NCBI GenBank assembly: GCA_030430565.1
Contig: JAUIKS010000008.1
Coordinates: 111,225-175,224 of the forward strand
Source: Polyangia bacterium
Lineage (GTDB): Bacteria > Myxococcota_A > Polyangia > Nannocystales > Nannocystaceae
DNA length: 64,000 bases
Reading direction: 5' to 3'
Under the pieces are notes generated by a model, which worked only from the letters and a program-made list of their open reading frames with translations, made no database searches and was not told the DNA's origin. Position numbers and translations under genes: made by a program. Each line of letters begins with the position of its first letter. Position 1 is the stretch's first letter. This document shows, one piece after another, positions 2,748-64,000 of the stretch.

Positions 2748-2789
2748 GAGCGTCCGTATGACCAGCTCGCGCGCGACCTACAACTTCGC
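2748..2789. repeat. 42-bp direct repeat, copy 1 (gagcgtccgtatgaccagctcgcgcgcgacctacaacttcgc)
   Basis: Exact 42-nt identity with 2836-2877, period 88 bp (not a multiple of 3). Lies in the convergent intergenic region between the genes ending at 2543 (+) and 2886 (-). Confidence 0.8.
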
Positions 2790-2835
2790 TAAGCGTCATG
2801 GCTTCGTGAACCCCACGCCGAGCGCTCGCCACGGC

Positions 2836-2877
2836 GAGCGTCCGTATGACCAGCTCGCGCGCGACCTACAACTTCGC
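2836..2877. repeat. 42-bp direct repeat, copy 2
   Basis: Exact copy of 2748-2789; ends 9 nt before the stop of the minus-strand rhomboid gene. Confidence 0.8.
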
Positions 2878-2885
2878 GGCTCGAG

Positions 2886-4139: not shown

Positions 4140-4337
4140 GCTCCCTGAGCGAGCGTCGTCGATTCTCGAAGCGGTTGGCAAACGCCGGCGGCCCCGCCCC
4201 GGCGGCGCCAAAACTCCCGGGGGATCGAGACTGCTGACGCGCGCGCTTTCAGCCCGCGCGGGCAAGAACGAAACAATTCACGGAGCCCCCGCGTGCTATA
4301 GTGGCCACCCCTCCATGCCCTTGCGAGGTCTCACGCA

Positions 4338-6077
<1,740 letters not shown>

Positions 6078-6186
6078 CGGTCTCGACCGGCGGCGGCGGC
6101 GTGTCGTCCACCTCGTCGCGGCGCTGCGGCTGCGCCGAGCGGCTGAAGGTGTTCTCGCGGCCAGCTGAGCGCGGGGCGACGCTCGC

Positions 6187-7392
6187 TCAGCTCCGCGAGC
6201 CCGGGCGGGTGACGCCCAGCTCTACGTCCATCCCCAGCGCGAACGGGCTCCCCCCCGCGCTCATGCGGAGCTCGGTCTTTTGGGTCATCTTCAGCGAGCG
6301 CGGGAACATCTCGTCGAGGCGCACGCGCACGCGCCCCTCGCCCGTGGCCGCGAGCGACTCGAGGCGCACGCCCGCGCCGCGCGTCGCCTGCGGCCCGGCC
6401 GTCTGCGTGATCTCGAAGCGGAGCGTCAGCTCGTCGCCCTCGCGCGCCTCCAGGGTGTAGCGCTTGGTCTGATCGATGGAGGTCCCGTCGGGGCGCCTGA
6501 CCGTCGTCGCCACCGACCAGCGCGCCCCGACGCCGACCGGCTCCTCCGGCAGCGGGACCGTCAGCTGCGGGAAGGCCTCGCGCAGCCCGTCGAGCACGCC
6601 CTTGAGCTCGCGCGAGCGCTCGAGCGCGGCGGGGACGTCGAAGTCGCCCTCGCGCACCACCCCGCGCTCGTCGAACAGCAGGTAGCCGCGCACGTCGGCG
6701 AGCAGCGGGAAGCTGGCGCGCAGCGACCTGGCGACGGCGACGATCTGACCTGGCTCTTCGAGCACCATCCAGTCGACGAAGCCGAGCTCGCCGTGGCGCT
6801 CGCCCGCGCCGGTCTCGTCGCCCAGCACGAGCTCGGTGGTCAAGCGCGCGACGGGGAGCTTGAGCGTCGGGCCGTCGCTCGCGCCCGCGCCCGCGTGAAG
6901 CGCCACGCGCAGCTCGAACACCAGGGTCTGCGGCGTCCCCTCCGGCGCGCGAAAGCGCAGGTTGTCGAAGCCGCTGGCGCCGGCGCTGCCCCGCTCGATC
7001 AGCGTGATCTCGGGCTGGGGCGGGCGGTCGTCCTCGCGGTCACCCTCGGGCGCCTCTCCGCCCTCCCCCGCGCCGACGCCCTCGCGCGAGTCGCCGTCCT
7101 CGTCGCCCTCGTCATCGCCCGCGGGGCCCATCGCGACCTGCCGCGCCAGCGCGGCCGCACCCCGCCGCGCCCGCGCGCGCGCCCGTGTACGCGCGCCCTC
7201 GTCGTCGGCGCCGCGCGCCCCGTCGCGCGACGCCGCGGTCGACCCGCCGCCGCCGCCCGCGACGCCGGTGACCGAGGAGCGCGCGTCGGACTCCGGTCGA
7301 CCACCCGCCGACGCGCGCAGCCAGAGCAGCGCCGCGATCACCAGCAGCGAGCTGAGGACGACGATCGAGGCGAGCGCGCGGCGGGGCGACAT
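6187..7392 (-). CDS. Hypothetical membrane-anchored protein with acidic Gly/Asp/Glu-rich spacer
   Basis: N-terminal hydrophobic anchor ALASIVVLSSLLVIAALLWL. The C-terminal half has protein-like composition (LTLRFEITQTAGPQATRGAGVRLESL...). The antisense plus-strand ORF 6280-7401 is Arg/Ala-rich junk. Confidence 0.55.
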   Translation of the reverse strand: MSPRRALASIVVLSSLLVIAALLWLRASAGGRPESDARSSVTGVAGGGGGSTAASRDGARGADDEGARTRARARARRGAAALARQVAMGPAGDDEGDEDGDSREGVGAGEGGEAPEGDREDDRPPQPEITLIERGSAGASGFDNLRFRAPEGTPQTLVFELRVALHAGAGASDGPTLKLPVARLTTELVLGDETGAGERHGELGFVDWMVLEEPGQIVAVARSLRASFPLLADVRGYLLFDERGVVREGDFDVPAALERSRELKGVLDGLREAFPQLTVPLPEEPVGVGARWSVATTVRRPDGTSIDQTKRYTLEAREGDELTLRFEITQTAGPQATRGAGVRLESLAATGEGRVRVRLDEMFPRSLKMTQKTELRMSAGGSPFALGMDVELGVTRPGSRS

Positions 7393-7440
7393 GAACCTTG
7401 ATGCTACACCCAGTCGCGCGCCCGAGATATCCGCGGGGCG

Positions 7441-9705
7441 TCAGGTGCCGTCCACGCGCACCACCGTCGCCTCGCCGAGACCCTCCGTCAGCGCGTGCTC
7501 GATGCGCGTGGCCAAGCCGGTGTAGCGCCGGGCCGCGTCGCCGCGGCGCACGGCCTGCGAGATCGCCCGCGGGTCCCCCACGACCACGCAGAGCCGACGC
7601 GCGCGGGTGATCGCGGTGTACAGGAGGTTGCGCCGGAGCATCACGTGGTGCTCCCCGAGCAGCGGGACGATCACCGCCGGGAACTCGCTGCCCTGGCTCT
7701 TGTGGATCGAGATCGCGTAGGCGAGCTGCAGCGACGAGAGCTGCTTGTGATCGTAGGACAGCGGGACCCCGTCGACCTCGACAACGAGCGTGCGCTGCTC
7801 GGGGTCGACGTGCGAGACGACGCCGATGTCCCCGTTGAACACGCCGCGCTCGTGGTCGTTGCGGATCTGCATGACCCGATCGCCGACGCGAAAGCGCCGC
7901 GGCGGCTTGCGCCCGATGCCCGGCAGCTCGAGCTCGACCGCCCCCTCGGTGTGGTGGGCCTGCAGCGCCTGGTTGAAGGCGACGGTGCCGGCGCGGCCCT
8001 TGTGCATGGGGCAGAGGATCTGCACGTCGCTGCGGGCGTCGAGGCCGTAGGCCTCGGGCGCGCGCTCGACCGCGATCTTCATGACGAGCTCGTGCACGCG
8101 CTGGGGGTCGCGGGCGTTGATGACGAAGAACTCCCCCTCGGCGTCGCTGTCGGGGTCCGGCCGCTCGCCGCGGAGCACCCGGTGGGCGTTGCGGACGATC
8201 GACGAGCCCTCCGCCTGACGGAAGATCCGGTCGAGCCGGACCACGGGGATCGGCGAGCTCGGTCGCTCGGCCGCGGAGATCATGTCGCGCAAGACGTTGC
8301 CGGGGCCGACCGAGGGCAGCTGATCGATGTCGCCGACGATCAGCAGCCGGTGCTCGGGGGTCAGCGCCGAGAGCAGCGCCTCGGCGAGCGGGAGGTCGAG
8401 CATCGAGGCCTCGTCGATCACGACCAGGCCCTGCGGCAGCGGGTTGTTGGTGTGGTGCGCGAAGGCGCCGGTGTCGCCCTGGATCTCGAGCAGCCGGTGG
8501 ATCGTCGACGCGCGCTTACCGGTCGCTTCGGACAGCCGCTTCGCGGCCCGCCCGGTCGGCGCCGCGAGCAGCAGCTCGATCTCGTTGGCGACCGCGAGCT
8601 CGATGATCTGCCGCGTGACCGTGGTCTTCCCCGTGCCGGGACCGCCCGTCAAGATCGCCAACCCGGCCTCGGCGACCGCCTCGACCGCGCGCCGCTGACC
8701 GTCGCTCAGCGTCTCCGGCAGCGCGCCGACGGCCCAGGGCTTGTGCGGCGCGACGGCGAGCTGCGCGAGCGCCCGCGCGACCGACCGCTCGGCGTCGACG
8801 AAGCGCGCCGGGAACACCAAGAGCAGCGAGTCACCCCGCGCCTCCTGGATCAGCGCCTCCTCGGCGACCAGGCGCTCGACGCCCTCGCGAACCCGCGGAC
8901 CCGGCAGCTCGAGGATCTGCGCCGCGTTCATCACCAAGCGCTCGATCGGCAACGCGCAGTGCCCCTCCGACTCCGCGCGCTCGAGGGTGTAGAGCAGGCC
9001 GGCGTCGACGCGCTCGTCGGAGTCGAGCGAGACCCCGACCGCGCGCGCGACCCGGTCCGCGGTTAAAAACCCGATCCCGCGGATGTCTCGCGCCAGGCGG
9101 TACGGGTGCTCGCGGACCATCGTGATGGCCTCCTCGCCGTAGCGGCGAAAGATCCGACTGGCGTGATGAGCCGGGACCTCGAGCTCGATGAGCAGGTTCT
9201 CGACCGCAGCCTCGGGCCCGTGACGCGACTCGTGGTACTCGAGCACGCGCTCCAAGGTCTTCTCGCCGATCCCGCTGACCTCGAGCAGACGCCGCGGCTG
9301 GCGCTCCAGGATCGTGAGCGTGTCGGTGCCGAAGCGCTTGATGATCCGCTCCGCGCGATCGGGGCCGAGCCCGGGGTAGCGCTCGAGCCGGCGCTGGATC
9401 CCCTGGGTCGTCGTAGGCGCCTTGATCACCAAGCGGACGAAGCGAAACTGTCGCCCGTAGGTCGGGTGATCCGCCCACTCGCCCGCGGCTGAGACCTCCG
9501 CGTCCTCCTCGACCCCGCGGGTGCGGCCAACCCACGTCGCCACCTCCGAGACGCCCGGCGAGCGCACGCGCAGGATCGTGAAGCGCGAGTCGGCGAAGAA
9601 GCGCGCGCTGACGACGACGCCCTCGAGCTGCTCCTCGCCCTGCGCGCCGCGCTGCTCCGCGCGCCGAGACTGGCCGAAGCCGTGCATGAACCCCCCGCTC
9701 GCCAT
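7441..9705 (-). CDS. recD2: RecD2-type (RecD/TraA family) SF1 ATP-dependent DNA helicase
   Basis: Walker A GGPGTGKTT, LIVGDIDQLPSVGPG, HhH-like LLEVSGIGEKTLERVLEY, and C-terminal SH3-like/helicase motifs (KSQGSEFPAVIV, YTAITRAR). Start ATG 9705 chosen (alternatives 9687, 9765). Confidence 0.85.
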   Translation of the reverse strand: MASGGFMHGFGQSRRAEQRGAQGEEQLEGVVVSARFFADSRFTILRVRSPGVSEVATWVGRTRGVEEDAEVSAAGEWADHPTYGRQFRFVRLVIKAPTTTQGIQRRLERYPGLGPDRAERIIKRFGTDTLTILERQPRRLLEVSGIGEKTLERVLEYHESRHGPEAAVENLLIELEVPAHHASRIFRRYGEEAITMVREHPYRLARDIRGIGFLTADRVARAVGVSLDSDERVDAGLLYTLERAESEGHCALPIERLVMNAAQILELPGPRVREGVERLVAEEALIQEARGDSLLLVFPARFVDAERSVARALAQLAVAPHKPWAVGALPETLSDGQRRAVEAVAEAGLAILTGGPGTGKTTVTRQIIELAVANEIELLLAAPTGRAAKRLSEATGKRASTIHRLLEIQGDTGAFAHHTNNPLPQGLVVIDEASMLDLPLAEALLSALTPEHRLLIVGDIDQLPSVGPGNVLRDMISAAERPSSPIPVVRLDRIFRQAEGSSIVRNAHRVLRGERPDPDSDAEGEFFVINARDPQRVHELVMKIAVERAPEAYGLDARSDVQILCPMHKGRAGTVAFNQALQAHHTEGAVELELPGIGRKPPRRFRVGDRVMQIRNDHERGVFNGDIGVVSHVDPEQRTLVVEVDGVPLSYDHKQLSSLQLAYAISIHKSQGSEFPAVIVPLLGEHHVMLRRNLLYTAITRARRLCVVVGDPRAISQAVRRGDAARRYTGLATRIEHALTEGLGEATVVRVDGT

Positions 9706-39774: not shown

Positions 39775-42700
39775 TCAGTCGGCCGACTCACGGAGCTCGC
39801 TGTCGCTGGGTCGCTCGCCCCCCGCGGCCTCGGACTCGCTCGCGTCCTCAGACGCGACGGGGGCGGGTAGGTCCGCAGATGGGGCGACCTCCGCCTCACC
39901 GTCTCCGCCGTCACTCGCCTCCTCCACGACCTCGGCGGCCGGGTCCGCGTGCTCAACGACCGCCGGCGCCGACGCTTCCTCAACTGCGCCCTCGACAGCT
40001 TCCCCCACGTCGGCGGCGCTCGCCTCCGTGGTTTCGACAGCCTCCGCGTCGGCCGGTGACGCGGCGGCCTCCTCGACCTGCGCTTCGGCGTTCTCCGCTG
40101 GCGAGGCTGCTTCAAGCTGGTCCTCGGGCGCCGCTTCGCCACCTGCCTCCGCCGACTCCCCGGCGACCTCCTCCGACATCACCTCGCCGGCTTCCTCGGG
40201 CTCCGAGATGGTCTCCTCCGCCGCTTCGCCGACCTCCTCCGCGGACCCCTGGGGCTCCTCGACGGCCTCCTCCGCCGCGTCGCTGGTCTCCGATGACGAC
40301 GCTTCGTCGGCCCCCTCGGGCTCCTCGACTGTCACCCTCGCGGTATCCACGGCCTCCTCCGGCGCCGCTTCAACGGGCCGCGACTCCTCCACCTCCGGGG
40401 CGGCTTCTGGACCGCTCACGACCTCGCCCGCGTCGACAACCTGCGCGGGGCCGTCGTCGCTCGCCGCGAAGCTCGTGAGCTCAACCTCCGCCGTCGCCGG
40501 ATCGGACACGGCCGCCTCGGCCCTCGCCAGCTTCGCGGCGAGCTCGAGGTCAAGGAGCCTCGCGCGACCGATCGTCGGATCGTCGCTCAGCAGGCGCTCG
40601 TAGGCCAGCGGATCGCCGCGCTCCAGCTCGCCCGGCTCGGCGTCGCCGAGCAGCTGACGGACGCCGCGTCGCGAGCCGTAGTAGTTGCCGCGGTTGTGGT
40701 CCGCGTCGGTGTTGCACTTGCGGACCAGCGAGCGCGAGATCGGCGGGAGGTTCAGCATGTCGAGCGCGCGCTCCCACAGCTGACCGAGGCGGTTCTGATC
40801 TGCCGGGTACTCGAGCAGGCTCGCCAGCAGCAGCAACAAGCCGCCGCGCTGCCCCGCGATCGTGTCGATGGGCTCACGCCCGCCGAGGTGCCCGAGGTCG
40901 ACCGCGCGCCACCAGGCGTCGGCGGCGATCAGCAGTCGCTTCAGCTCCTGCGGCGTGTGGCTGAGCCACGAGTTGTACATGACCTCCGCGACCAGGCCGC
41001 CCGGCGCCGCGGGATCCTTTAGATAGCGAACAACCGCCGGGAGCCGCCCGAGCTCCTGCGCCGGCCCGTCGCCGGTCGGCACGTCGCTGGGCGGGTGCGC
41101 GGGGCTGTAGAAGCCCGCGCCGCGAAACGCGTAGAAGCGCTCCGCCTCGCCGGGCAGCTCATCCCACAGCTCGCTGTACTGCGTCACCCGGTTGAGGCTC
41201 CCAGCCGACCAGCCGAGCCCGCGCGCGGCGGCGCCGCTGACCTGTGACGCCGCGACCCCGGGGTCGCGCGGGACAGCCCCCTCGCGCGTGTCCTCGGCGA
41301 TCTCGATCAGCGTGAAGTCGAGGAAGCCGTCGTAGTAATCGGCCTTGCCGTCGTGGTTGATGTCCTCGTAGCGCGCGACGACGCTGCGGTGCGCGGGCCC
41401 GACGAATTGCACGAAGCCCTCGACGCGGTTCTGCTTGTGATACCACTGGGCTTCGCGGATCCGCGCGTCGATCTGGACGAAGCTCTCGCCGGCGGCGAAG
41501 CCCTGCAGGATCGCGTGAAAGCAGTCGCAGGCCTCCGACTCGATGATCTTGTGGCTCCCGTCGGTGCGGAAGTAGGTCGAGTCCCACGACGAGTAGATGT
41601 CGGCCTCGGGGAACATCCGCGAGATCGCGAAGCGCGTGGTCAAGCCGGCGCACTGACAGTTGATCTGCAGCTTGTACCCGCGCTGCTCGACGGCGACGGT
41701 CGAGGCCGCCATGTCGTTCGAACCGAGGTTGGCGTGCCGGCTGATGCAGTGCCCGACGAAGTACGCCTCGCCCATCTCGAAGTTCTCGCTGCGCGGGCTC
41801 GTCGCGCGCAGCAGCAGCTGGATCTTCTGTCCCTTGGGCCCGGTAAAGGGCGCCTCGAGGGCCTTGTAGCCGCGGTAGCCCGGCGGCGCGGGGGCGTCCT
41901 CCGGGACCTCGATCTCGGCGAAGCTGTACTTGTCGCGCATGACCTCGTACTCGCCGGGGTGAAAGTCGTAAGCGCTCGCGAAGGCGAAGCGCCAGGTGTC
42001 GCCGAGCTCGTCGTAGGGCGGCGCCTCGCGCAGGTAGCCGCGCTGCAGCGCGACGACCCGCGCGCGGTCTTCCTCCGACAGCGCCGGGCCGCGCTGCGAG
42101 AGCAGCTGGATCGCGTGGGCGCGCAGCTCGGGCCGCGCCCCCGCCCCGACCTCCGCGTCGATCAGCGCGAAGATCATCGCCGCGGCCCGGTCCGCGAGCG
42201 CGCGAAACCCCGGGTCCTTCAGCGCCGTCGCGAGCACGTGCGAGAGCACCGTCAGGACCGCCGAGCGCAGCTGCACCGCGTCGACCCCGGCCGCCCGCGC
42301 CTCCTCGCGCGTCGGCGCGGCCGCCCGCGAGATCGCCTCGAGCTGTCCCAAGAGACCTTCGCCCTGCGCGGGCGAGAGCCGGTCGGCGCGGCGCGCCTGC
42401 TCGGGGTGAAAGGCGCTCGGCGGGAACAGGCACTCGAAGCTCGTCGTGCGTCGCGACGAGACCCAGCGCGCGGCGTTGACCATGACGTCGAGCGCGTCGA
42501 GCCCACGCGGCGCCGCGCCCTCCTCGCTCGCCGCGAGCGTGCCGTCGGCGCGCAGCAGCAGCGGCGCCGCGCCGAACATCCCCTCGGTCAGGTTGAGCGC
42601 GGGCGGCTCATCGCGCAGCAGCCCGCGCCCCGCGGCCTCGCGGAGGCGACAGCGCAGACCGGCGCGCCCTTCGAACTCAACCAGCACGCGTCGACCGATG

Positions 42701-42927
42701 GCGCCCTGCACGAGCGCGCGGCGGTCGTCACCGAGCGTGACGAGCGAGCGAAGATGGAACGAGCGCGCGCCGGCGCACAGCAGCTGCGCCCCCTCAGCGC
42801 CCCGGGCCTGCTCAAAGCTCGAGCCCGCCTCGTCGCCCGAGGCGACCACCTCGACGGAGATCGCGACTCGCTCGTCGTCACCGGCGCCGCGCGGAGCGGG
42901 CACCCAAAGCTTCACTTCGTTCGCCAT
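39775..42927 (-). CDS. Large hypothetical protein (1050 aa) with GHC motif and ~250-aa acidic Glu/Ala-rich C-terminal tail
   Basis: ATG 42927 preceded by GAAGGAAG. Central region with GEAYFVGHCISRHANLG...CQCAGLTTRF...ACDCFH. C-terminal low-complexity EEAVEEPQGSAEEVGEAAEETISEPEEAGE.... The antisense Pro/Arg-rich ORF 39678-40478 is junk. Confidence 0.65.
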   Translation of the reverse strand: MANEVKLWVPAPRGAGDDERVAISVEVVASGDEAGSSFEQARGAEGAQLLCAGARSFHLRSLVTLGDDRRALVQGAIGRRVLVEFEGRAGLRCRLREAAGRGLLRDEPPALNLTEGMFGAAPLLLRADGTLAASEEGAAPRGLDALDVMVNAARWVSSRRTTSFECLFPPSAFHPEQARRADRLSPAQGEGLLGQLEAISRAAAPTREEARAAGVDAVQLRSAVLTVLSHVLATALKDPGFRALADRAAAMIFALIDAEVGAGARPELRAHAIQLLSQRGPALSEEDRARVVALQRGYLREAPPYDELGDTWRFAFASAYDFHPGEYEVMRDKYSFAEIEVPEDAPAPPGYRGYKALEAPFTGPKGQKIQLLLRATSPRSENFEMGEAYFVGHCISRHANLGSNDMAASTVAVEQRGYKLQINCQCAGLTTRFAISRMFPEADIYSSWDSTYFRTDGSHKIIESEACDCFHAILQGFAAGESFVQIDARIREAQWYHKQNRVEGFVQFVGPAHRSVVARYEDINHDGKADYYDGFLDFTLIEIAEDTREGAVPRDPGVAASQVSGAAARGLGWSAGSLNRVTQYSELWDELPGEAERFYAFRGAGFYSPAHPPSDVPTGDGPAQELGRLPAVVRYLKDPAAPGGLVAEVMYNSWLSHTPQELKRLLIAADAWWRAVDLGHLGGREPIDTIAGQRGGLLLLLASLLEYPADQNRLGQLWERALDMLNLPPISRSLVRKCNTDADHNRGNYYGSRRGVRQLLGDAEPGELERGDPLAYERLLSDDPTIGRARLLDLELAAKLARAEAAVSDPATAEVELTSFAASDDGPAQVVDAGEVVSGPEAAPEVEESRPVEAAPEEAVDTARVTVEEPEGADEASSSETSDAAEEAVEEPQGSAEEVGEAAEETISEPEEAGEVMSEEVAGESAEAGGEAAPEDQLEAASPAENAEAQVEEAAASPADAEAVETTEASAADVGEAVEGAVEEASAPAVVEHADPAAEVVEEASDGGDGEAEVAPSADLPAPVASEDASESEAAGGERPSDSELRESAD

Positions 42928-43106
42928 ACTTCTTCCTTCGCTCAGGTCGGCGGCCCGTCCCCGCGATAGCGCTTCGAGGCGGCGGCGGGACCCTCCCGGC
43001 AGGTCGCGAAGCTATCACAACAGACTCGCGGAATCGGTCGTCATCGGGCAGCTCCGCGCGGGCAAAAAGATTGCGTCCTGCGCGATCGAGACGGCGGCGC
43101 GGAGCG

Positions 43107-47684: not shown

Positions 47685-48779
47685 TCAGGTCGCCTGCGCC
47701 TGGACGCCGGAGCCGCTCTCGCTCGGGTCGCTCAGCGTCGTCTCAGCTGGCGTAACGGTCATGTCGTCGAGTTGACCCTCGCCCGCGTCGAGCATGTCCG
47801 TCTCCATCGTGCGCGCGGCGATGTCGGGGTGCAGGAACCAAGCGCTCGCGGTGCGCTCCGAGAGCATGAAGTCGAACAACAGCCCGGCGACCTTCTCGCG
47901 ACCGCTCGGCGAGGGGTGAACGCCGTCCCAGATCAAGTCGTCGCGGGTGTAGCGGAGCCCGTTGTCCTTGCGAGGCACGACGCCGTCCGCCCAGAGGTAC
48001 GGGCCCCACTGGATCCACGGGCTGCGCACCTCGCCCTTCGAGGGGTCGTAGTTCAGCTCCGGCTTGCCCGCGATCTGATCACGCACGAGCCACTTCACGG
48101 CGAAGCCGCTCTCGTAGGCGTGCGGCTCCGGGCTGAGCGGGATCTCGGAGTAGCCGCCGTAGGCGCGGCTGGAGATGTACGCGACCGCGAGGTTCGGGTA
48201 GCGCTCCGCGAGGATGTGCATCGTGTTGACGAGGCAGCCGTAGAGCTTCTCGACCTCGGCCGGGAACGGCTTGTTCGGCTGCTTGACCGAGCTCTTGATC
48301 CAGACGGCCTGGACCTGCTCGTTGGTGAGGCCCGACTGCTTGACGCGCCGATCGACGGTCGGCCAGTAGTTCGAACGCAGCGTCTCCATGATCTCGGCGG
48401 ACTTACGCGGCTGCGCGCCGTTGACGACCACGAGCGCCGGGTTGACGGCTTCGAACTCCGAGACCAGGTGCATAAACACCTGAAACTCGCTGTTGGTGTT
48501 GGACAGCCCGATCCCGATCAAGCCGATCTTGCCGTCCTCAGCCGGCGCGCCGTCCGGGCCGCGCGGCACGACCTTCGCGATGCGCTCGAGCCCCGCCCCG
48601 TAGTGCTCCGGAGGCGGGTGATTCTGCCCTCCGGGATAGAGCCCGCCCTCCTCGCCGCAGTACTCAGCGCCCTTGAGCTCGAGTAGCGGCGAACAACCAA
48701 TAGATTCGCGTGGTGGATTCTTGCGCGCGAATTCCACCATGAACTTCGGCCGTCGCTTTGGTGCCCGGTTCAAGGTCAT
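47685..48779 (-). CDS. Hypothetical protein, possible SGNH/GDSL-like hydrolase fold
   Basis: IGLIGIGLSNTNSEF (GxSx block I-like) and DGVHPSPSG (DxxH block V-like). The 5' 100 nt lie in a local low-GC patch. Start 48779 (alternative 48740). Confidence 0.5.
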   Translation of the reverse strand: MTLNRAPKRRPKFMVEFARKNPPRESIGCSPLLELKGAEYCGEEGGLYPGGQNHPPPEHYGAGLERIAKVVPRGPDGAPAEDGKIGLIGIGLSNTNSEFQVFMHLVSEFEAVNPALVVVNGAQPRKSAEIMETLRSNYWPTVDRRVKQSGLTNEQVQAVWIKSSVKQPNKPFPAEVEKLYGCLVNTMHILAERYPNLAVAYISSRAYGGYSEIPLSPEPHAYESGFAVKWLVRDQIAGKPELNYDPSKGEVRSPWIQWGPYLWADGVVPRKDNGLRYTRDDLIWDGVHPSPSGREKVAGLLFDFMLSERTASAWFLHPDIAARTMETDMLDAGEGQLDDMTVTPAETTLSDPSESGSGVQAQAT

Positions 48780-48876
48780 CAGCGAGTCGCGGTAAACGAT
48801 ACCAGATGTACCAAGGGGCACGTGACGTGCCCCCGCGCATCTCGTACCCACTCAAGAGAGCGGCGCCGGCGTCGTC

Positions 48877-56315: not shown

Positions 56316-57386
56316 ATGACCGCCTCCTCCGCAGTCGACAAGACCGGCGCGCTGCTCATCAACCTCGGCACCCCCGAGGCGCCCGAGCCTGGACCCGTCC
56401 GCCGATACCTGCGCGAGTTCCTCTCGGATCCGCGCGTGATCGACATCAACCCGATCGGCCGCTGGTTGTTGCTCAACCTGATCATCTTGCCGTTCCGCCC
56501 GGCCCGCTCGGCCGCCGCCTACCGCAAGGTGTGGACGCCGAAGGGCTCCCCCCTGCTCGTGCACGGCCGCGAGCTCACGGCCGCGGTGCAGCGGCGGCTC
56601 CCAGACTGGGAGGTCCGCCTCGCCATGCGCTACGGCGAGCCGTCCCTGCGCGACGGCCTCACCGCGCTGCGGGCGGCCGGCTGCGACCGCATCGTCGCCA
56701 TGCCGCTGTATCCGCAGTTCGCCTCCAGCTCCACGGGCTCGACGGTCGAGGCGCTCTACGCCGAGGTCGGTCGCCACTGGAACACGCCCTTCGTCACGGT
56801 CGTGCCGCCGTTCTACGAGCACCCCGACTTCATCGAGGCCCTCGCGGCGCGCGGTCGGCCCGTGCTCGACGATCTCGACCCCGAGCACGTGCTGTTCAGC
56901 TTCCACGGGCTCCCAGTGCGTCACGTCACCAAGAGCGCGCCGAGCGGCTGCTGCCGCGTCGACGACGAGTGCTGCGCGCGGATCTCGATCGAGAACCAAA
57001 ATTGCTACCGCGCGCAATGCTTCGCGACGGCGCGCGCGCTCGCCACGGCGCTCGGCCTTGAAACACCTGACTACACGGTCAGCTTCCAGTCGCGCCTCGG
57101 CCGGACCGAGTGGATCAAGCCGTACACGGACATCGTGATCGAGGAGCTCGGCAAGCGCGGCGTGAAGCGGCTCGCGGTGTTCTGCCCGGCGTTCGTCGCC
57201 GACTGTCTCGAGACCTTGGAGGAGATCGGGATCGCGGCCGCCGAGAGCTTCCGCGAGGCCGGCGGAGACCGCCTCGAGCTGGTCCCCGCCGTCAACGCGA
57301 CGGATCGCTGGGCCGACGGCGTGGCGGCGATCCTCCAGGCGAGCGAGCCCCCGGCGAGCCGCCGCCAGCTGCCCGTCGTCACCTAG
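56316..57386 (+). CDS. hemH: Ferrochelatase
   Basis: ATG 56316. LLINLGTPEAPEPGPVRRYLREFLSDPRVIDI, MRYGEPS, FSFHGLP, CPAFVADCLETLEEI. The upstream extension of the ORF to 56199 is junk. Confidence 0.9.
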   Translation: MTASSAVDKTGALLINLGTPEAPEPGPVRRYLREFLSDPRVIDINPIGRWLLLNLIILPFRPARSAAAYRKVWTPKGSPLLVHGRELTAAVQRRLPDWEVRLAMRYGEPSLRDGLTALRAAGCDRIVAMPLYPQFASSSTGSTVEALYAEVGRHWNTPFVTVVPPFYEHPDFIEALAARGRPVLDDLDPEHVLFSFHGLPVRHVTKSAPSGCCRVDDECCARISIENQNCYRAQCFATARALATALGLETPDYTVSFQSRLGRTEWIKPYTDIVIEELGKRGVKRLAVFCPAFVADCLETLEEIGIAAAESFREAGGDRLELVPAVNATDRWADGVAAILQASEPPASRRQLPVVT

Positions 57387-58093
57387 GCCCGCGCCTGGGG
57401 ACGCGTCGCGCTCGACGCGGCGCCGCGCTTTCTCCGACGCGGCCCGCGACGCGCGCCCGCCAGCGTGAGCACGTGCTCGAAGTGGGCGCGCTGGACCGGC
57501 TGAATCGAGAGTCGCTGGCCGCGCTGCACGACGAGCATCTCGGCGAGCGCGAGCTCGGCCTTCAACGCCTCGAGCGACACCGGATCCGCGAACTTCTCGA
57601 CGAACTCGACATCGACCATGACCCACCGCGGGTTCGCGGGGTCGGACTTTGGATCGTGGTACTTGCTGCCCGGATCGAAGGCGGTGTGGTCGGGATACGC
57701 GGTCTTGCAGACCCGCGCGAGGCCGACCACGCCGGGGGGCTTGGCGTTGGAGTGGTAGAAGAACACCCAGTCGCCGACGCGCATGTCGTCGCGCATAAAA
57801 TTACGCGCCTGGTAGTTGCGGATCCCGTCCCACTCGGCGCTCTTGTCCCGCGCGAGGTCGTCGATCGAGTACGCGTCGGGCTCGCTCTTCATGAGCCAGT
57901 AGCCGGTGGCCGCGAGGGCCGGGTTCTTCACCGGAGGCTTCTTCGCCGCCTTCTTCTTCGTGGCCTTCTTCGTGGCCTTCTTCGTGACCTTCTTCGCCGC
58001 CTTCTTCGTCGCCGGCTTCTTCGTCACCGGCTTCTTCGTGGCCTTCTTCGCCGCCTTCTTCGTCGCCTTCTTCGTCTTCCGTGTCGCCGGCAT
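57383..58093 (-). CDS. EVE (PUA-like) domain protein with N-terminal histone-H1-like Lys/Ala/Thr-rich repeat tail
   Basis: ATG 58093. Tail MPATRKTKKATKKAAKKATKKPVTKKPATKKAAKKVTKKATKKATKKKAAKK encoded by a ~12-bp tandem repeat (acgaagaaggcc). EVE core GYWLMKSEPDAYSIDDL...WDGIRNYQARNFMRDDMRVGDWVFFYHS...GVVGLARV...RWVMVDVEF. Confidence 0.8.
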   Translation of the reverse strand: MPATRKTKKATKKAAKKATKKPVTKKPATKKAAKKVTKKATKKATKKKAAKKPPVKNPALAATGYWLMKSEPDAYSIDDLARDKSAEWDGIRNYQARNFMRDDMRVGDWVFFYHSNAKPPGVVGLARVCKTAYPDHTAFDPGSKYHDPKSDPANPRWVMVDVEFVEKFADPVSLEALKAELALAEMLVVQRGQRLSIQPVQRAHFEHVLTLAGARRGPRRRKRGAASSATRPQARA

Positions 58094-58149
58094 CGCCGGA
58101 TTCGTGCCCGGTTTTTCCGTCGCGCGCAAGGCTCCGCGAAAGCCTGATA

Positions 58150-59268
58150 ATGTCGTGGCGCGTGAAGGGAACCCGCAGCGTCACCGCGGCAGTCGGCGCG
58201 CGGCTCGTGCAGTCGAGCTGGGTGCGACGACTCGGGCGGATCAGCTTCCTCGGGACGCTGGACTATCACCCCGGCAGCACGGCCGCGAGCACGCGCCTCG
58301 AGCACTCCATGGGCGTCGCCCGGCTGGGCGTGGAGATCGCCGAGTCCCTCGAGCTCGATCGCGCGACCACCCGCAGCTTCGTCGCCGCCTGCCTGCTCCA
58401 CGACATCGGGCACTTCCCGCTCTCGCACGCGGCCGAGCCAGGCTTCGCGCGCGCCCTAGGCGTGGCTCATCACGGCGTCTCCGAGTGGATCATCCTCGGC
58501 AACGGGCCGATCCCCCGCGCGCTCTCGCTGCGCCCGCTGCTCGAGGCCGAGGGCCTCGAGCCCGCGCTGCTGTGGGCGCTCATCACCGGCGACGCGGACA
58601 ACCTGAGCCCGCTGCAGCGTAGCCTGTCGCGCCTGCTGCTGGCGCCGATCAACCTCGACACGCTCGACGGCATCGTCCGGGCCGCGCGCGCCTTCGGGAT
58701 CCGCGGGGTTCGTCTGCGCGAGCCGCTGTTTGTCCGCGCGGGCGCCGAGGTCGCTATTCGACCCGAGGCGGTCCCGATCCTCGATCGCTTCTGGGCGCTC
58801 AAGGATCGGGTCTACTGCGACGTCATCAACCTGCCGTCGAACATCGTCTGCGAGGCGCGTCTCTCGTCGGCGGTCGCCCGACGCTACGACCGCGCGATCT
58901 TCGGCGGCTTCGAGCGCTTCGACGATCACGTGCTGGCGTCGCTGCTCGAGGAGCACCTGCGCGACAGCGGGCTGCTCGAGGGCCGCGACGATCCCTTCCA
59001 GTTCCGCCGCGACTCGGACGAGCGCGCCGACGCGGCGCTGCACCTGCGCCGCGCCCGAAAGCGATACTTCGTCGATCACACCGTGCTGCCCGACGAGCGC
59101 GGCCTCCGGCTCGAGCAGTGGCCGCGTCGCTATCGACACGAGCGCCAGATCATGTACCTCGTCCCCCGCCGCGCGAGCCGTCAGCTCGTGCTGCCCGGGC
59201 TCGCGCTCGACAAGGACGACGCCCCCCCGATCCCCGGGTACTCCGCCGTCGACGGACCCGACATCTGA
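58150..59268 (+). CDS. HD-domain phosphohydrolase
   Basis: ATG 58150. HSMGVARL...CLLHDIGHFPLSH (H..HD metal motif), ..DGIVRAARAFG. 372 aa. Confidence 0.75.
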   Translation: MSWRVKGTRSVTAAVGARLVQSSWVRRLGRISFLGTLDYHPGSTAASTRLEHSMGVARLGVEIAESLELDRATTRSFVAACLLHDIGHFPLSHAAEPGFARALGVAHHGVSEWIILGNGPIPRALSLRPLLEAEGLEPALLWALITGDADNLSPLQRSLSRLLLAPINLDTLDGIVRAARAFGIRGVRLREPLFVRAGAEVAIRPEAVPILDRFWALKDRVYCDVINLPSNIVCEARLSSAVARRYDRAIFGGFERFDDHVLASLLEEHLRDSGLLEGRDDPFQFRRDSDERADAALHLRRARKRYFVDHTVLPDERGLRLEQWPRRYRHERQIMYLVPRRASRQLVLPGLALDKDDAPPIPGYSAVDGPDI

Positions 59269-59291
59269 CTCGCCCTCGCCCGCGCTTCGTT

Positions 59292-60332
59292 ATGACCATC
59301 GAGCCAGCGATCGACGCGACGCCCTACGACTACGCCGCGCTGCTCCCCGAGCTCGGGATGTCCGAGGGCGAGCTGCCGGCGATCCGCGCGGCCTCGCGTC
59401 GCTCGTGGGCGACGATTCAGCGCGCGCGCGCCCAGCTCGCGCCGCTGCGAGCGCAGCGACACCTGGTGGGTCTCGCGATCTTCGCGGTCGGCTCGGTCGG
59501 CCGCTTTGAGTCGTCCGAGCGCAGCGATCTCGACCTCGCGGTGCTCCGCGTCCGCGCGCCGCCGAGCGCGGACGCGGCCGAGGAGGCGCGCGCGCGCGTC
59601 GTCAGCCGGCTCCGCGCGCTCACGCTCGACGTGACTGAAAAGACATTTCGACGCGTCATCGATCTGCGCGCGCTCCTCCGCGACATCGGCGGCAGCGCGG
59701 ACAACAATGACCACCTGACCTACCGCGCGCTGCTGCTCACCGAGGGCGCGTGGCTGGCGGAGGCCGACGCCAGCGCCCTCTCGCTGACCCGCATGTTCGA
59801 CGCGTACACCCGCGGGCGCATCGCGCCGGGCCGCTACTTCACCGCGCTCAGCAACGACCTCCACCGCTACTACCGGACGCTCTGCGTCGACTACCGCTTC
59901 AAGGTCGAGGAGGCCAACAAGCGCTGGGCCGTCCGGCTGCTCAAGCTCCGTCACTCACGCAAGCTCTGGCACCTCGCCAACATCGCGACCTACTGCGCCG
60001 CCGCCCAGGTCGACGACGCGTCCCGCGAGTCGCTGCTGCGCCGCGAGCTCGGCGAGCCGCCGCTGTGGCGCCTCGTCAAGAGCATGCGCCGACTCGACGG
60101 CCTGCCCCTGTGCCCGCCGATCCTCCGCAGCTACGATCGCTTCCTCGCCGCGCTCGCCGACGCGAACGCGCGCGCCGAGCTCGATCGGCTGGCCCACGAC
60201 GACCGACACCAGAGCCCGGTGTTTTGCGCCCTCTACAGCAACGCGGATGAGTTCACCCAGGCGACGCACGCGATCATCGAGCACCTGTGGGATCGCTGTC
60301 ACGATCACCTGCTGCGCTACGGGATCCTCTAG
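59292..60332 (+). CDS. Pol-beta-superfamily nucleotidyltransferase with C-terminal helical domain
   Basis: ATG 59292, 23 nt after the HD gene. LAIFAVGSVGRFESSERSDLDLAVL (GS...G......SD.D signature), downstream LTLDVTE (candidate third carboxylate). Helical C-terminal half. Confidence 0.7.
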   Translation: MTIEPAIDATPYDYAALLPELGMSEGELPAIRAASRRSWATIQRARAQLAPLRAQRHLVGLAIFAVGSVGRFESSERSDLDLAVLRVRAPPSADAAEEARARVVSRLRALTLDVTEKTFRRVIDLRALLRDIGGSADNNDHLTYRALLLTEGAWLAEADASALSLTRMFDAYTRGRIAPGRYFTALSNDLHRYYRTLCVDYRFKVEEANKRWAVRLLKLRHSRKLWHLANIATYCAAAQVDDASRESLLRRELGEPPLWRLVKSMRRLDGLPLCPPILRSYDRFLAALADANARAELDRLAHDDRHQSPVFCALYSNADEFTQATHAIIEHLWDRCHDHLLRYGIL

Positions 60333-60413: not shown

Positions 60414-62324
60414 CTAGCCGCCGCGCGGGACTTCGAACTTCGTCACGACGCCCTCCTCGGGGTCGATCTCGACGTTCTCGCTGTTGTTGGCCTTCTTGGT
60501 CGTCTTCTTGAGCGTCAGCTTGAGCGGCTTGGGCTTCTTGCCCTCGGCCAGCGTGACCGTCTTCTTGCTCGATCGATAGCCGGAGAGCTTGAGCGAGATC
60601 TTGTACTCGCCGGGCGCGAGCTCGAGCTCGAGCGGGGTCTTGCCCTTGCTCTCACCGTCGATCTTCACCTCGGCGCCCTTCGGGCTGCTCTCGATCTTGT
60701 ACGAGATCAACGCGGGCTCAGGCGGCGTGTCGCCGGTGGGATCGACGACACCCGAGTCGACGCCCGCAGTCGGATCAGGCGCGCCGGACTCGTCCGCGCC
60801 GGTGGGATCGGGCTCAGCGAGCCGGGCCTTGATCGCCTCCGCGCGCGCGCGCGCCTCGGCGTTGCTCGGGTCACGCGCGAGCACCTCCTCGTAGGCCTCG
60901 AGCGCGTCGCTCAGCTCGCCGGCGCCTTCCTTCGCCTGGGCCTCCGCGAGCATCGCTACCACGGGATCTTCGGCCGGCTCGGCGGTCTCCTCGGCCGCCG
61001 AGTCCGCGACGACGGCGGGCTGCTTCGCAGGATCTCCAGCTTTCTTCTCGTCGGCCGCGCCCGCCGTGACCCGGGAGATCGTCGGCGCCTTCGCGGGACG
61101 CTTGGCGATCGCGGGGCCACCCGCCGGGGAGACCTGGCCGCCGCCGAGGAAGGGCAGCTGCCCCTGGCTGTAGAGATACGCGCCGACCCCACCGAGCGCG
61201 AGCAGCAGCAGCACGATGATCAGGCCGCCGCCGCCCTTGCCCTCGCTCGCCTCCGCGCTCTGGGCCTCTACCACCGGCGCCGGGGATGGCGCCGGCGGCT
61301 CGACCTCCGCGACGGGGCGCGGATCGGCGGCGGGCGCGGGCGCGCTTGGTTGACGTGCGACGACGATCGGCGCGACGGGGCGTGACTCGCGGGCCGCCGT
61401 TGGCGTCGGCATGGCCACGACCCCCTCGGGCTTGCGCGGCGCCGCCTTCGGCAGCCGGAACATGGACGCCGGGACCGAGTCGATCAGGAACTCGACGATC
61501 TCGTTGGCGTCGATCGGGCGCTCGTCTGGATTCTTCGACAAGCACGCGCCGACCAGCTCGATGACGCCCTTGGGGATCGTATGTCCCGAGGGCAACGCGG
61601 TGGCGAGCGAGGTCGGCTGGTCGTTGACGATCTTGTACAGGACCTGCGCGTCGGTCCCCTCGTAGGGCTTCCGGCCCGCGAGCATGGTGTAGAAGAGCAC
61701 GCCGATGCCGTAGACATCGGTCCGCGGGTCGAGCGGACCCTGCTGCACCTGCTCGGGGGCCCAAAACCCCGCCGACGCCTCCGCGTTGGCCTGGTCGGCG
61801 ACATCGCCGAAGATCTGCATCAGGCCGAGATCACAGATCTTTACGAAATTCGCGCGGCCTTTCTCCTCGATCAACAGGATATTCGAGGGCTTGAGCGCGC
61901 GGTGCAGCAGTCCGCGGGCGTGCGCCGCACCCATGGCTTTGAGGACCTGCGCGGCGATCGGCACGAACACTTCGATCGGCAGCGGGCCCTCGCGACCGAG
62001 GAAGTTGTCCAGCGACATCCCCTCGACGTACTCGACGACGACATAGGCGCCGAATTCGGCGGAGAAGCCGTAGTCGTGCACCGCAGTGATGTTGGGGTGC
62101 TCTAGCCCCTGCAGCGCCCTGGCCTCGCGTTCAAAGCGCTGACGGGACTCTGGGGTGCTGGCGACAGCCTCGGGGAGCAGCTTGAGCGCGACGGTTCGAT
62201 GCAGCGTCCGATGGCTCGACAAGTAGACGCGGCCCTTGACCCCGGACCCGAGCAGCCGCTCGAGCGTGTAGTGCGAGCCAACGGTCCGGCCGAGCAGCGG
62301 ATCGGTCTTCGCGGCGACCTTCAT
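60414..62324 (-). CDS. Hanks-type Ser/Thr protein kinase with TM segment, TPR-like segment and C-terminal PEGA domain
   Basis: AAGGAAC then ATG 62324. LLGSGVKGRVYL, VALKLL, HRALKPSNILL, DLGLMQ, GFWAPEQ. TM GGGLIIVLLLLALGGVGAYLY. PEGA YKIESSPKGAEVKIDGESKGKTPLELELAPGEYKISLKLSGY. Confidence 0.85.
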   Translation of the reverse strand: MKVAAKTDPLLGRTVGSHYTLERLLGSGVKGRVYLSSHRTLHRTVALKLLPEAVASTPESRQRFEREARALQGLEHPNITAVHDYGFSAEFGAYVVVEYVEGMSLDNFLGREGPLPIEVFVPIAAQVLKAMGAAHARGLLHRALKPSNILLIEEKGRANFVKICDLGLMQIFGDVADQANAEASAGFWAPEQVQQGPLDPRTDVYGIGVLFYTMLAGRKPYEGTDAQVLYKIVNDQPTSLATALPSGHTIPKGVIELVGACLSKNPDERPIDANEIVEFLIDSVPASMFRLPKAAPRKPEGVVAMPTPTAARESRPVAPIVVARQPSAPAPAADPRPVAEVEPPAPSPAPVVEAQSAEASEGKGGGGLIIVLLLLALGGVGAYLYSQGQLPFLGGGQVSPAGGPAIAKRPAKAPTISRVTAGAADEKKAGDPAKQPAVVADSAAEETAEPAEDPVVAMLAEAQAKEGAGELSDALEAYEEVLARDPSNAEARARAEAIKARLAEPDPTGADESGAPDPTAGVDSGVVDPTGDTPPEPALISYKIESSPKGAEVKIDGESKGKTPLELELAPGEYKISLKLSGYRSSKKTVTLAEGKKPKPLKLTLKKTTKKANNSENVEIDPEEGVVTKFEVPRGG

Positions 62325-62727
62325 CTTAGTTCCTTGCATCGTGCGCCCGTCGTGGTCACTGCCCGGGAAAGACTGTGTGCTTTCTTTGTAAAGCGGCCCA
62401 CAACCCGGAGCGGCTGCACGCGACGTCTCAAAAAATAACACACGCACGAACGACGCCAGCGCTCTCCCACGAGTGAGCGAACGTTTTCGCTCAAACTAGC
62501 CCACACAGACGCACCCGGCGCCGATCCGGTTTGTTGCCCTACCGCATTCGCGCACCGGACCTCGGGAATAATGCGCGATCAACCTTACGATACGCGCGTT
62601 GCCACGCGTCAACGCCCGGACCGCTGGACATCCGTGCACAACCTCATGCAGTGACGTTGCGCCGATCGAGACCAGTCCGTAGCCTCAGACGCGGATATTC
62701 GACGAGCTCGTGGTAGATTTAAACGAC

Positions 62728-64000
62728 ATGGCCTTAAGGACAACCGTCACCTCGCGCGGCGCAGAACGCGTGCGCGGTATCGGTGTTGGTTTCGCGTCGC
62801 TATCGCGCGCGACGTTCGGCGCGACGCTCGTCACCGCCCTGAGCCTTTCCGCGTGCGTCGATCCCCACCCGACGCCCGAGACCGACGCGATCGTCACGAC
62901 CTCCGGATCCGAGCCGCACGCGAGCACCTTCAACACCGTCACCTCCGACAGCGGCTCCGTCGGCGTCGACTCGTCCGGAACCGCGCCCGAGTGCGTCGAG
63001 GGCACGATCGGCTGTCAGTGCTCACCGAGCGGCACGTGCAGCGAGGGGCTCACCTGCATCGAGGCGGTGTGCATCCCCGAGTCCTGCGGCAACGGTGACA
63101 TCGAGCCCGAGAACGGCGAGGAGTGCGACCCCGGCGACGGCGACGATCCCACGTGCGATGTCGACTGCACGCTGCTCCCGGTCTGCGGCGACGGCGTGCT
63201 CGACAACAACGAGGAGTGCGACGACGGCAACAGCTCCAACGACGACGCCTGCCTCAACACCTGCGAGGAGAACACCTGCGGCGACGGGCACATCTGGTCG
63301 ACGCAGGAGGAGTGCGACGACGGGCCCGACAACAGCTTCACCGGCGCGTGCCTCGAGACCTGCGAGACCGCGAAGTGCGGCGACGGCTACACCTGGGCGG
63401 ATCACGAGGAGTGTGACGACGCCGATCGCGACAACAACGACGCGTGCCTCAACACCTGCGTCGCGGCGAGCTGCGGCGACGGCTTCGTCTGGAGCGGCTC
63501 CGAGGAGTGCGACGACGCGAACGACGTCAACGACGACAGCTGCGCGAACGACTGCACGCAGCCGCCGACCGATTTCGACGCGTGCGGCTTCGCGGCCGAC
63601 GACGGGGTGTGGATCGAGTTCGAGTGGGCGAGCCAGAACCAGCCCGAGGACCCGGTCCTCAGCTACTCAAGCACGCCCGGCTGGGGCGCCTCGCAGTGGG
63701 CCTACGACAACAACGCCTCGGCCGAGGCCAAGGACCTGTTCGGCATGATCATGGCCGGCAACGATCCGATCGGCTGGGTGCTGCGGATCGACAACTCCGA
63801 CACGCTCCAGCTCCGCTTCGGGACCAGCGGCCTGACCTACGACACCGCGACCGTGTGTGTCACGGGCCGCAGCAGCACGACCGAGTTCGGCGTCGCCTTC
63901 GAGGTCAGCAACCCGCTCAACAATGACTGCGGCGGCACCGGGAACTTCAGCGCCGAGTGGGTCGTGCAGGCCGACGGCTTCGAACTCCCGAACAACTGCG
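62728..64000 (+). CDS. 5'-partial (runs off window) secreted lipoprotein with six or more Myxococcus cysteine-rich repeats and a C-terminal beta domain
   Basis: ATG 62728. Signal ATLVTALSLSACVD. Repeats CGNGDIEPENGEECDPGDGDDPTCDVDC / CGDGVLDNNEECDDGNSSNDDACLNTC / CGDGHIWSTQEECDDG... / CGDGYTWADHEECDDADRDNNDACLNTC / CGDGFVWSGSEECDDANDVNDDSCANDC. Open in frame to 64000; not in the supplied ORF table because it has no stop. Confidence 0.85.
   Translation, partial: MALRTTVTSRGAERVRGIGVGFASLSRATFGATLVTALSLSACVDPHPTPETDAIVTTSGSEPHASTFNTVTSDSGSVGVDSSGTAPECVEGTIGCQCSPSGTCSEGLTCIEAVCIPESCGNGDIEPENGEECDPGDGDDPTCDVDCTLLPVCGDGVLDNNEECDDGNSSNDDACLNTCEENTCGDGHIWSTQEECDDGPDNSFTGACLETCETAKCGDGYTWADHEECDDADRDNNDACLNTCVAASCGDGFVWSGSEECDDANDVNDDSCANDCTQPPTDFDACGFAADDGVWIEFEWASQNQPEDPVLSYSSTPGWGASQWAYDNNASAEAKDLFGMIMAGNDPIGWVLRIDNSDTLQLRFGTSGLTYDTATVCVTGRSSTTEFGVAFEVSNPLNNDCGGTGNFSAEWVVQADGFELPNNC

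Follow-up and report, generated by a model that had tools for sequence, protein, structure and literature searches.

What do a stand-alone HD-domain hydrolase and a Pol-beta-type nucleotidyltransferase (NTase) accomplish together when their genes lie one behind the other in the genome of a Polyangia bacterium? The pair occupies positions 58,150 to 60,332 of a 64-kb stretch of contig JAUIKS010000008.1 (hereafter the window, meaning the whole stretch of DNA analyzed). The reading that we favor, with a probability of roughly 0.45, is that it is an NTase-regulated deoxynucleoside triphosphate (dNTP) triphosphohydrolase (dNTPase) working like the bacterial Clover system. The two genes and the spacer between them are as follows:

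58150..59268, + strand: HD gene, ATG at 58150, TGA at 59266-59268, 372 aa; SAMHD1/EF1143-type (COG1078-like) dNTP triphosphohydrolase homologue
59269..59291, + strand: spacer between the HD and NTase genes, 23 nt, CTCGCCCTCGCCCGCGCTTCGTT
59292..60332, + strand: NTase gene, ATG at 59292, TAG at 60330-60332, 346 aa; Pol-beta nucleotidyltransferase of GlnE/DrrA architecture, PADLOC PDC-M70A family

The gene pair and its linkage across bacteria

Both are real, native genes and not chance open reading frames (ORFs). For each, more than 100 full-length homologues were found at E < 1e-70, the start codons of both are backed by homologue alignments, and the AlphaFold2 models reach a mean pLDDT of 89.3 (HD) and 91.8 (NTase). 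The G+C content at third codon positions (GC3) is 0.91 for the HD gene and 0.93 for the NTase gene, equal to that of the neighboring genes in a window of 70.5% G+C. HD homologues are found throughout the Nannocystaceae, and the nearest named relative is a Myxococcales metagenome-assembled genome (MAG) at ~80% identity. Recent horizontal acquisition in the Polyangia genome was considered and ruled out, since GC and GC3 equal those of the neighbors and synteny is kept. The common strand, the 23-nt gap and a spacer in which no terminator-like site was found suggest that the two genes are likely co-transcribed, and a Pfam scan of both proteins revealed no ACT, GlnD, RelA/SpoT or further domains. 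The first-pass annotation, made from the letters of this stretch, was right in both domain assignments, in treating the proteins as stand-alone and in placing the genes in one operon; the NTase peptide that it quoted, LAIFAVGSVGRFESSERSDLDLAVL, is found at NTase residues 61-85 and the quoted metal motif of the HD protein at H52...H84-D85...D170.

Linkage was followed in a locus scan of one genome per species that used the helical-block motif of the NTase as the pattern, and was scored with hidden Markov models (HMMs) built from the NTase alignment of the scan (A1) and an HD alignment (A2). A1 samples the Nannocystaceae-type subfamily only; for the taxonomic breadth of the superfamily we rely on protein searches. 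The 41 loci recovered include Nannocystis pusilla, exedens, punicea, bainbridge and radixulma, three Enhygromyxa salina strains, Plesiocystis pacifica, strain ST9 and many MAGs, as well as two Acidobacteriota/Thermoanaerobaculia MAGs. One locus (L045) is an uninformative 541-bp fragment; in 39 of the 40 informative loci the HD gene lies immediately 5' of the NTase gene on the same strand, at an estimated spacing that mostly ranges from a 7-nt overlap to ~120 nt. Pairwise identities of the HD proteins and of the NTases are correlated across 39 loci (r = 0.92), a value that none of 2000 Mantel permutations reached. The HD gene is likewise upstream of the NTase gene in the gammaproteobacterial, campylobacterial and metagenomic loci obtained by protein look-up, a Rhizobium locus (L006) excepted, and Pseudomonas also carries the pair. 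Adjacency is thereby documented in Myxococcota, Acidobacteriota, Pseudomonadota and Campylobacterota, and four metagenomic proteins of 664-693 aa (P0281, P0290, P0304 and P0322) join an N-terminal HD domain to a C-terminal PDC-M70A-type NTase domain in one chain.

We are highly confident that the HD protein and the NTase form a single functional module. The idea of a functional couple had already been put forward in the first-pass annotation, and the linkage in 39 of 40 informative loci, the fusion proteins and the co-divergence of both proteins bear it out. The HD protein is indeed dNTPase-like, a result the annotation would have held against the idea, yet its linkage to the NTase is strongly conserved and the couple stands. 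Locus L036 (Enhygromyxa salina SWB005, 2089-8990) has the NTase without an HD gene, and a kinase-containing ORF of ~1900 aa ends just 5' of it. An HD homologue (P0195) from an E. salina genome is located on a separate 9-kb contig.

Families, folds and conserved residues

The following features of the HD gene bear on its family assignment:

58303..58305, + strand: metal-ligand His52, invariant among 32 family members and likewise among 18 superfamily members, enteric and fused forms included
58399..58437, + strand: catalytic block H84-D85-I-G-H88-F-P-L-S-H93-A-A-E96, LLHDIGHFPLSHAAE, invariant
58657..58659, + strand: fourth metal ligand Asp170 (INLDTLDG), invariant
59050..59139, + strand: basic C-terminal beta region, R301-x-x-K304-R305-Y306...W324-x-x-R327-Y328-R-H330, invariant within the Nannocystaceae family

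Pfam recognizes the core motif of the HD protein alone (HD, E 2.6e-8). A profile of 32 HD family members matches the PDB structures 2hek (Aquifex) and 2q14 (Bacteroides BT4208) as well as 2o6i (the Enterococcus EF1143 dNTP triphosphohydrolase), fungal SAMHD1 and human SAMHD1. A Foldseek search with the predicted model returned full-length matches to 2q14, 4lrl/3irh/2o6i, SAMHD1 and 2hek (TM 0.60-0.66 over ~400 columns, E from 5e-11 to 1e-9); the first 50 matches are SAMHD1/EF1143-type, with no Dgt-type enzyme among them. PDB 9p8w (SpdGTPase) was matched by the family profile at E 2.8e-4 over ~80 residues. Residues H52, H84-D85, H88, H93, E96, H107-H108 and D170 are invariant in the 32-member family, and the catalytic set is equally invariant among 18 sequences that take in partners from Salmonella, Klebsiella, E. 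coli, Pseudomonas, Aliarcobacter and metagenomes plus the four fusions. The HD protein shares with SAMHD1, EF1143, BT4208 and Aq_1910 the full-length fold and the catalytic H...HD..H....H..E/D...D, and it differs from them in its low identity (~15-18%), its shorter length, its own C-terminal beta/basic region and its dedicated NTase partner. The block LLHDIGHFPLSHAAE resembles the HDIGHGPFSH motif of SAMHD1, and by a manual alignment the allosteric-site R145 of SAMHD1 appears to be unconserved in the HD protein. From profile and model together we conclude that the HD protein is probably an intact SAMHD1/EF1143-type triphosphohydrolase, with dNTPs as the substrate that homology predicts.

The R-Y dipeptide of the C-terminal region is preserved in nearly all distant partners, and this basic region could conceivably serve as a regulatory or ligand site. 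Cas3-HD and HD-GYP/HDOD were also tried as families for the HD protein and rejected, their matches being marginal and confined to the HD motif.

Three features of the NTase gene are needed here:

59490..59534, + strand: active site G67-S68-x2-R71-x-E73-x4-S78-D79-L-D81, D81 at least 90% conserved in 64 members
59742..59744, + strand: Glu151, putative third catalytic carboxylate (LLLTEG strand), invariant, its role deduced from the Pol-beta fold pattern
59853..59960, + strand: helical-domain block NDLHRYYRTLCVDYRFKVE...KxWAxRxLKLRHSR (R192, R195, R215, K218, R223), invariant or near-invariant

The NTase matches the PADLOC model PDC-M70A end to end (E 1.1e-35, 121.6 bits; residues 25-345, model positions 16-354 of 355), and all NTase relatives tested match it as well (1e-24 to 1e-57). 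PDC-M70 is a computational candidate only, and a literature search found no paper mentioning it. When the seed subfamily of PDC-M70A was sought among NTase relatives of ~355 aa, none scored above 191 bits; judging by scores of 84-191 bits on a model of 355 positions, none of the tested proteins is likely to come from that subfamily. In Pfam the NTase stays below threshold for GlnE (PF03710, 18.6 vs 24 bits), DUF294 (PF03445, 16.3 vs 21 bits) and MdcG; some of its homologues carry a precomputed PF03445 match. A PDB sequence search with the NTase gave no match. Its architecture is that of an NTase domain plus a helical substrate-binding domain. GlnE and the AMPylation domain of Legionella DrrA/SidM are only 10-13% identical to it, and the NTase differs from them as a single module without PII- or glutamine synthetase-related context.

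At a threshold of E <= 1e-3, an exhaustive HMMER search across 1.84 billion representatives yielded 988 NTase clusters, of which 430 remained at E <= 1e-10; most are of 310-350 aa. Residues G67, S68, R71, S78, D79, R145, E151, R192, R195 and R215 are invariant over 64 diverse NTases, and the catalytic set GS...DxD...E is, as far as alignment can tell, intact. Other NTase families were examined and rejected, namely CD-NTases, MNT/HEPN-partner NTases, aminoglycoside NTases, CCA/polyA polymerases and RelA/SpoT, all of which gave a weak alignment of the core subdomain alone. None of the PADLOC cyclase models matches the window NTase, their matches in relatives are marginal, and no CD-NTase is among the top fold matches.

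A Clover-like reading and its rivals

Depletion of dNTPs by SAMHD1-like enzymes is an antiviral strategy common to animals and bacteria, and a live question is how cells stop such dNTPases from starving their own replication. Clover, with a partner NTase and an inhibitory dinucleotide, is the first bacterial answer, but for a Dgt-type enzyme. The Clover dGTPase CloA is toxic alone, and the NTase CloB makes the dinucleotide p3diT, which binds and blocks CloA; phage-induced dTTP overrides this block (PMC12265719; Yamaguchi et al., bioRxiv 2025). CloA is an octameric Dgt-type enzyme of more than 450 residues with the catalytic residues H69/H117/D118/D242 and a C-terminal helical bundle that holds a dTTP site, it is ~33% similar to Shewanella dGTPase, and membership of CloB was defined by BLAST at E < 0.005 to the Salmonella or C. 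difficile protein (PMC12265719). Like Clover, the window pair is a two-gene operon in which the gene for the HD dNTPase precedes that for the Pol-beta NTase. The HD-x7-H-x2-E spacing of the HD protein (H84-D85, H93, E96) equals that of CloA (H117-D118/H126/E129; PMC12265719), and D79-L-D81 together with E151 of the NTase fits the [D/E]h[D/E]...h[D/E]h pattern described for CloB. The first-pass annotation could not assign the pair to any described system; it can now be placed near the PDC-M70A candidate, with Clover as an analog.

Relatives of the pair are found in defense hotspots and mobile elements, a further point of likeness to Clover. In Salmonella the pair is located on an island with integrases, and in Klebsiella pneumoniae (L051-L053, 6954-9011) it sits in a P2-like prophage between a tail-fibre gene and the gpU-tape-measure-tube-sheath block; the Klebsiella prophage protein recurs in dozens of assemblies. 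On an enteric contig the pair stands beside HamA and a DEAD helicase, i.e., Hachiman, and on an Isoalcanivorax-like contig it follows MNT-HepT and AbiEi-AbiEii. The 4.5-kb ColE1/Rop-type E. coli plasmid pISHS7_5 (L005, NZ_CP092257.1) carries the pair as its sole cargo besides Rop, which would fit toxin/antidote-like behavior of a putatively toxic HD protein by analogy with Clover. Its HD gene (4119-4499 + 1-684) crosses the record origin, the NTase gene (711-1706) follows 26 nt later, and both are annotated in RefSeq; the origin-spanning HD gene is missing from the PLSDB gene table. A blastn search of 5426 complete E. coli genomes with three enteric versions found pISHS7_5 alone (1/5426), so at the DNA level Clover of E. 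coli is no close relative of the present subfamily. Plasmid tblastn returned just 4-5 records, a viral-contig scan with the enteric alignment gave no confirmed locus, and tblastn against phage records gave no match. The link to defense raised in the first-pass annotation is supported outside this genome, by the PDC-M70A match and by the prophage, integrase island, Hachiman and plasmid settings; the surroundings of the pair in the window are no defense or signaling island.

Many relatives of the pair add a phosphatase gene, a difference from Clover. A HAD-IA hydrolase gene lies 3' of the NTase gene in about half of the Nannocystis-type loci. One Acidobacteriota MAG has it too, as does a distant lineage in which the HAD gene and the NTase stop overlap by 4 nt. 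The HAD position is taken by a histidine phosphatase in Pseudomonas, Aliarcobacter, a soil contig and the Rhizobium plasmid; the best similarity of this phosphatase, sub-threshold, is to the alpha-ribazole-5'-phosphate phosphatase CobC. Because one phosphatase fold replaces another at the same position, phosphatase activity appears to belong to the module. Neither a HAD nor a histidine-phosphatase gene was found in the whole 64-kb window, and the enteric prophage, island and plasmid versions are likewise without one.

In the Clover-like reading the HD protein would be the effector, an SAMHD1/EF1143-type triphosphohydrolase that removes (d)NTPs, and the NTase, through its GS...DxD...E site, would make a ligand derived from a nucleotide; by binding to the HD protein, this ligand would determine how active that protein is. 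The HAD or histidine phosphatase encoded by the third gene of relatives would trim or remove the ligand or the ligand's phosphates. The module is carried as mobile cargo in enterobacteria, on prophages, islands and a small plasmid, and is a fixed, vertically inherited operon in the Nannocystaceae. For the present genome we infer dNTPs as substrate, regulation of the HD protein by the NTase, a small nucleotide as the regulator and an antiviral or dNTP-homeostasis role.

Several results weigh against this reading. The window locus is not in a defense island, and family-wide synteny is unusual for defense systems; a chromosomal, syntenic and family-wide location is itself a difference from Clover. 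At 372 aa and with a beta-rich basic C-terminus, the HD protein is SAMHD1/EF1143-type, whereas CloA is Dgt-type, and the distance from H52 to H84 is 32, compared with 48 between the corresponding residues of CloA. The HD protein not being CloA/Dgt-type, the allosteric sites of CloA cannot be assumed for it. The NCBIfam model antiphage_dGTPase scores it at 26.7 bits against a cut-off of 400, and the dGTPase models of NCBIfam and PADLOC align just HD residues ~17-97, i.e., the N-terminal 80-100 residues. PDC-M70B, the partner model of PDC-M70A, is unmatched by the HD protein (E <= 1), by the HD partners of the tested relatives and by the EVE and kinase neighbors. The nearest solved folds of the NTase are those of DrrA and GlnE, which are protein AMPylases and not oligonucleotide synthases. 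Finally, polysaccharide clusters contain or adjoin 4 of ~10 non-myxobacterial contexts.

The fold matches of the NTase give weight to covalent control in the manner of a toxin-antitoxin system, in which the NTase would AMPylate or UMPylate the HD protein and thereby keep a toxic dNTPase off, with reversal by the phosphatase or by the chemistry of the HD protein. Since the only strong structural relatives of the NTase are protein AMPylases, a covalent nucleotide mark on the HD protein has to be taken seriously as a rival, if on balance an unlikely one. MntA nucleotidylylates HepT, and GlnE modifies glutamine synthetase. The type VII toxin-antitoxin system MntA-HepT and HalB of Hailong likewise have a Pol-beta NTase that neutralizes or restrains a partner effector; they differ from the present pair in that the core subdomain alone aligns (Foldseek TM ~0.2 on query) and in their partner proteins. 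Weak MntA matches of the NTase, the fusions that put both domains in one chain, and the plasmid on which the pair is sole cargo, as an addiction module might be, are consistent with such a switch. An invariant surface tyrosine that might be modified was not identified in the HD protein, the best candidate, Y328, being Phe in one member and Y222 lying in a core helix; a separate phosphatase gene better suits a small-molecule ligand; and the NTase product in the one characterized dNTPase-NTase pair is a free dinucleotide (PMC12265719). 

The glycan settings of relatives argue instead for a metabolic module, doubtful in our judgment, in which HD protein, NTase and phosphatase would make or recycle a nucleotide-linked metabolite with neither an immunity role nor mutual regulation, for instance a precursor for glycan or secondary-metabolite modification or a step of nucleoside salvage. 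In Aliarcobacter butzleri (L054/L055, 6963-9477) a trio of HD, NTase and His_Phos_1 genes lies inside a glycan cluster with aminotransferases, epimerase, formyltransferase and glycosyltransferase and overlaps the next gene, the formyltransferase, by 8 nt. On the soil contig the HD, NTase and histidine phosphatase genes are followed by an epimerase, a sugar NTP-transferase and a glycosyltransferase, and the Rhizobium plasmid (L006, 5854-7549) carries NTase and His-phosphatase, without HD, amid glycosyltransferases and MFS transporters. Among the loci whose trio lies in or abuts a glycan-biosynthesis cluster is L060 (728-3240). The sub-threshold resemblance of the histidine phosphatases to CobC and the metabolic neighbors in conserved synteny in the window point the same way. 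Surface-polysaccharide loci are themselves variable and prone to mobile-gene insertion, however, the prophage, island and plasmid carry the pair without phosphatase or glycan genes, and the dNTPase catalytic set is fully conserved; no biosynthetic pathway is known to use an SAMHD1-type triphosphohydrolase. That the NTase makes a second messenger which the HD protein degrades, in the style of GlnD, RelA/SpoT or a CD-NTase with its phosphodiesterase (PDE), is improbable, and the synthesis and degradation of a single signal, the logic suggested in the first-pass annotation, is not the best supported option. Some HD-domain enzymes are signal phosphodiesterases, the HD protein has weak HDOD/HDIG similarities and the genes are tightly linked; yet it matches dNTP triphosphohydrolases over its whole length, keeps H..HD..H....H..E...D and not the HD-GYP/PDE pattern, and no sensor or effector is conserved beside the pair in the loci examined. 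Because it appears to be a complete SAMHD1/EF1143-type dNTPase, the HD protein more likely acts on dNTPs as an effector than hydrolyzes the NTase product. The housekeeping character of the surrounding synteny would also suit a housekeeping dNTPase that merely neighbors an unrelated NTase, an explanation that is scarcely credible in view of the adjacency across distant phyla, the fusions and the co-divergence.

A more speculative and rather unlikely elaboration of the Clover-like reading is that an ancestral member of the Nannocystaceae captured a mobile defense-type module, which then became domesticated into a core operon, with an SAMHD1-type enzyme gated by an NTase-made ligand other than p3diT. 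Such an operon might serve dNTP-pool control or constitutive antiviral restriction and might be wired to the divergent EVE gene, for a reader of modified bases, and to the CYTH gene, both of which are its companions in Nannocystis; if so, it would represent a second class of dNTPases gated by a nucleotide signal, distinct in structure, with the optional phosphatase as signal eraser. NTase-partnered dNTPases as such have been known since 2025, and PADLOC had earlier listed the NTase family as a candidate; a literature search found no paper characterizing a pair of SAMHD1/EF1143-type HD protein and GlnE/DrrA-shaped NTase. What distinguishes the present module is this combination, together with the optional phosphatase, the fusions and the syntenic fixation in one family. 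It spans at least four phyla. Its two genes occur apart or fused, and the phosphatases found with them are of two kinds that are unrelated to each other. If the Clover-like reading is true, NTase gating of dNTPases would be a general design, a new nucleotide ligand or a protein-nucleotidylylation switch would likely be involved, and the Nannocystaceae operon would be a rare case of a defense-type module fixed in the core genome of one bacterial family. Enteric versions from the Klebsiella prophage, the Salmonella island and pISHS7_5 are directly clonable, and pISHS7_5 would be a convenient natural construct.

Neighborhood of the pair in the window

Two flanking genes are listed for context:

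57383..58129, - strand: EVE (PUA-like) gene, Pfam EVE at E 1.6e-58, start ~20 nt from the HD start
60414..62447, - strand: Ser/Thr kinase with TPR and PEGA (Pfam), converging on the NTase gene with ~80 nt between the stops

The local order, common to Nannocystis-type loci, is PPTase, ferrochelatase, EVE (on the - strand), HD, NTase and the convergent Ser/Thr kinase. Farther 5' lie genes for an aminotransferase, a PilZ protein, a Na/Ala symporter, an acyl-CoA dehydrogenase, an acyl-CoA ligase, an amidohydrolase and a FAD monooxygenase, and these metabolic upstream genes match none of the PADLOC models. The EVE and kinase surroundings, which the first-pass annotation had compared to a defense or signaling island, thus consist of metabolic neighbors whose order is conserved across Nannocystis-type genomes.

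Because their starts are ~20 nt apart on opposite strands, the EVE and HD genes can have only a very short divergent promoter region in common. This adjacency is kept in Nannocystis-type loci and is not found in Enhygromyxa-type or non-myxobacterial loci. The EVE protein begins with a Lys/Ala/Thr-rich, histone-H1-like tail of ~70 residues, KKATKKAAKKATKKPVTKK... In most Nannocystis-type loci (L004, L013-L026) a CYTH (triphosphate tunnel metalloenzyme) gene adjoins the EVE gene, ~1-2 kb 5' of the HD gene; none was found in the 64-kb window. Triphosphates, on which CYTH enzymes act, are also what a dNTP triphosphohydrolase releases as by-product, and the presence of such a gene near a dNTPase module could be a coincidence.

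The kinase combines a long Pro/Ala-rich linker with a TPR segment and, at the C-terminus, a PEGA domain and is syntenic in many Nannocystis-type loci; its PADLOC matches (PD-T4-6) look like generic kinase-domain similarity. Two ORFs elsewhere in the window, 39778-43011 (- strand, 1078 aa) and 47688-48851 (- strand, 388 aa), have a GC3 of 0.88-0.90 and no Pfam or PADLOC match at E <= 1e-5. The ORF at 62683-64000 (+ strand), which runs off the window end, encodes Cys-rich DUF4215 repeats (Pfam E 2.8e-16) and is highly repetitive on both strands.

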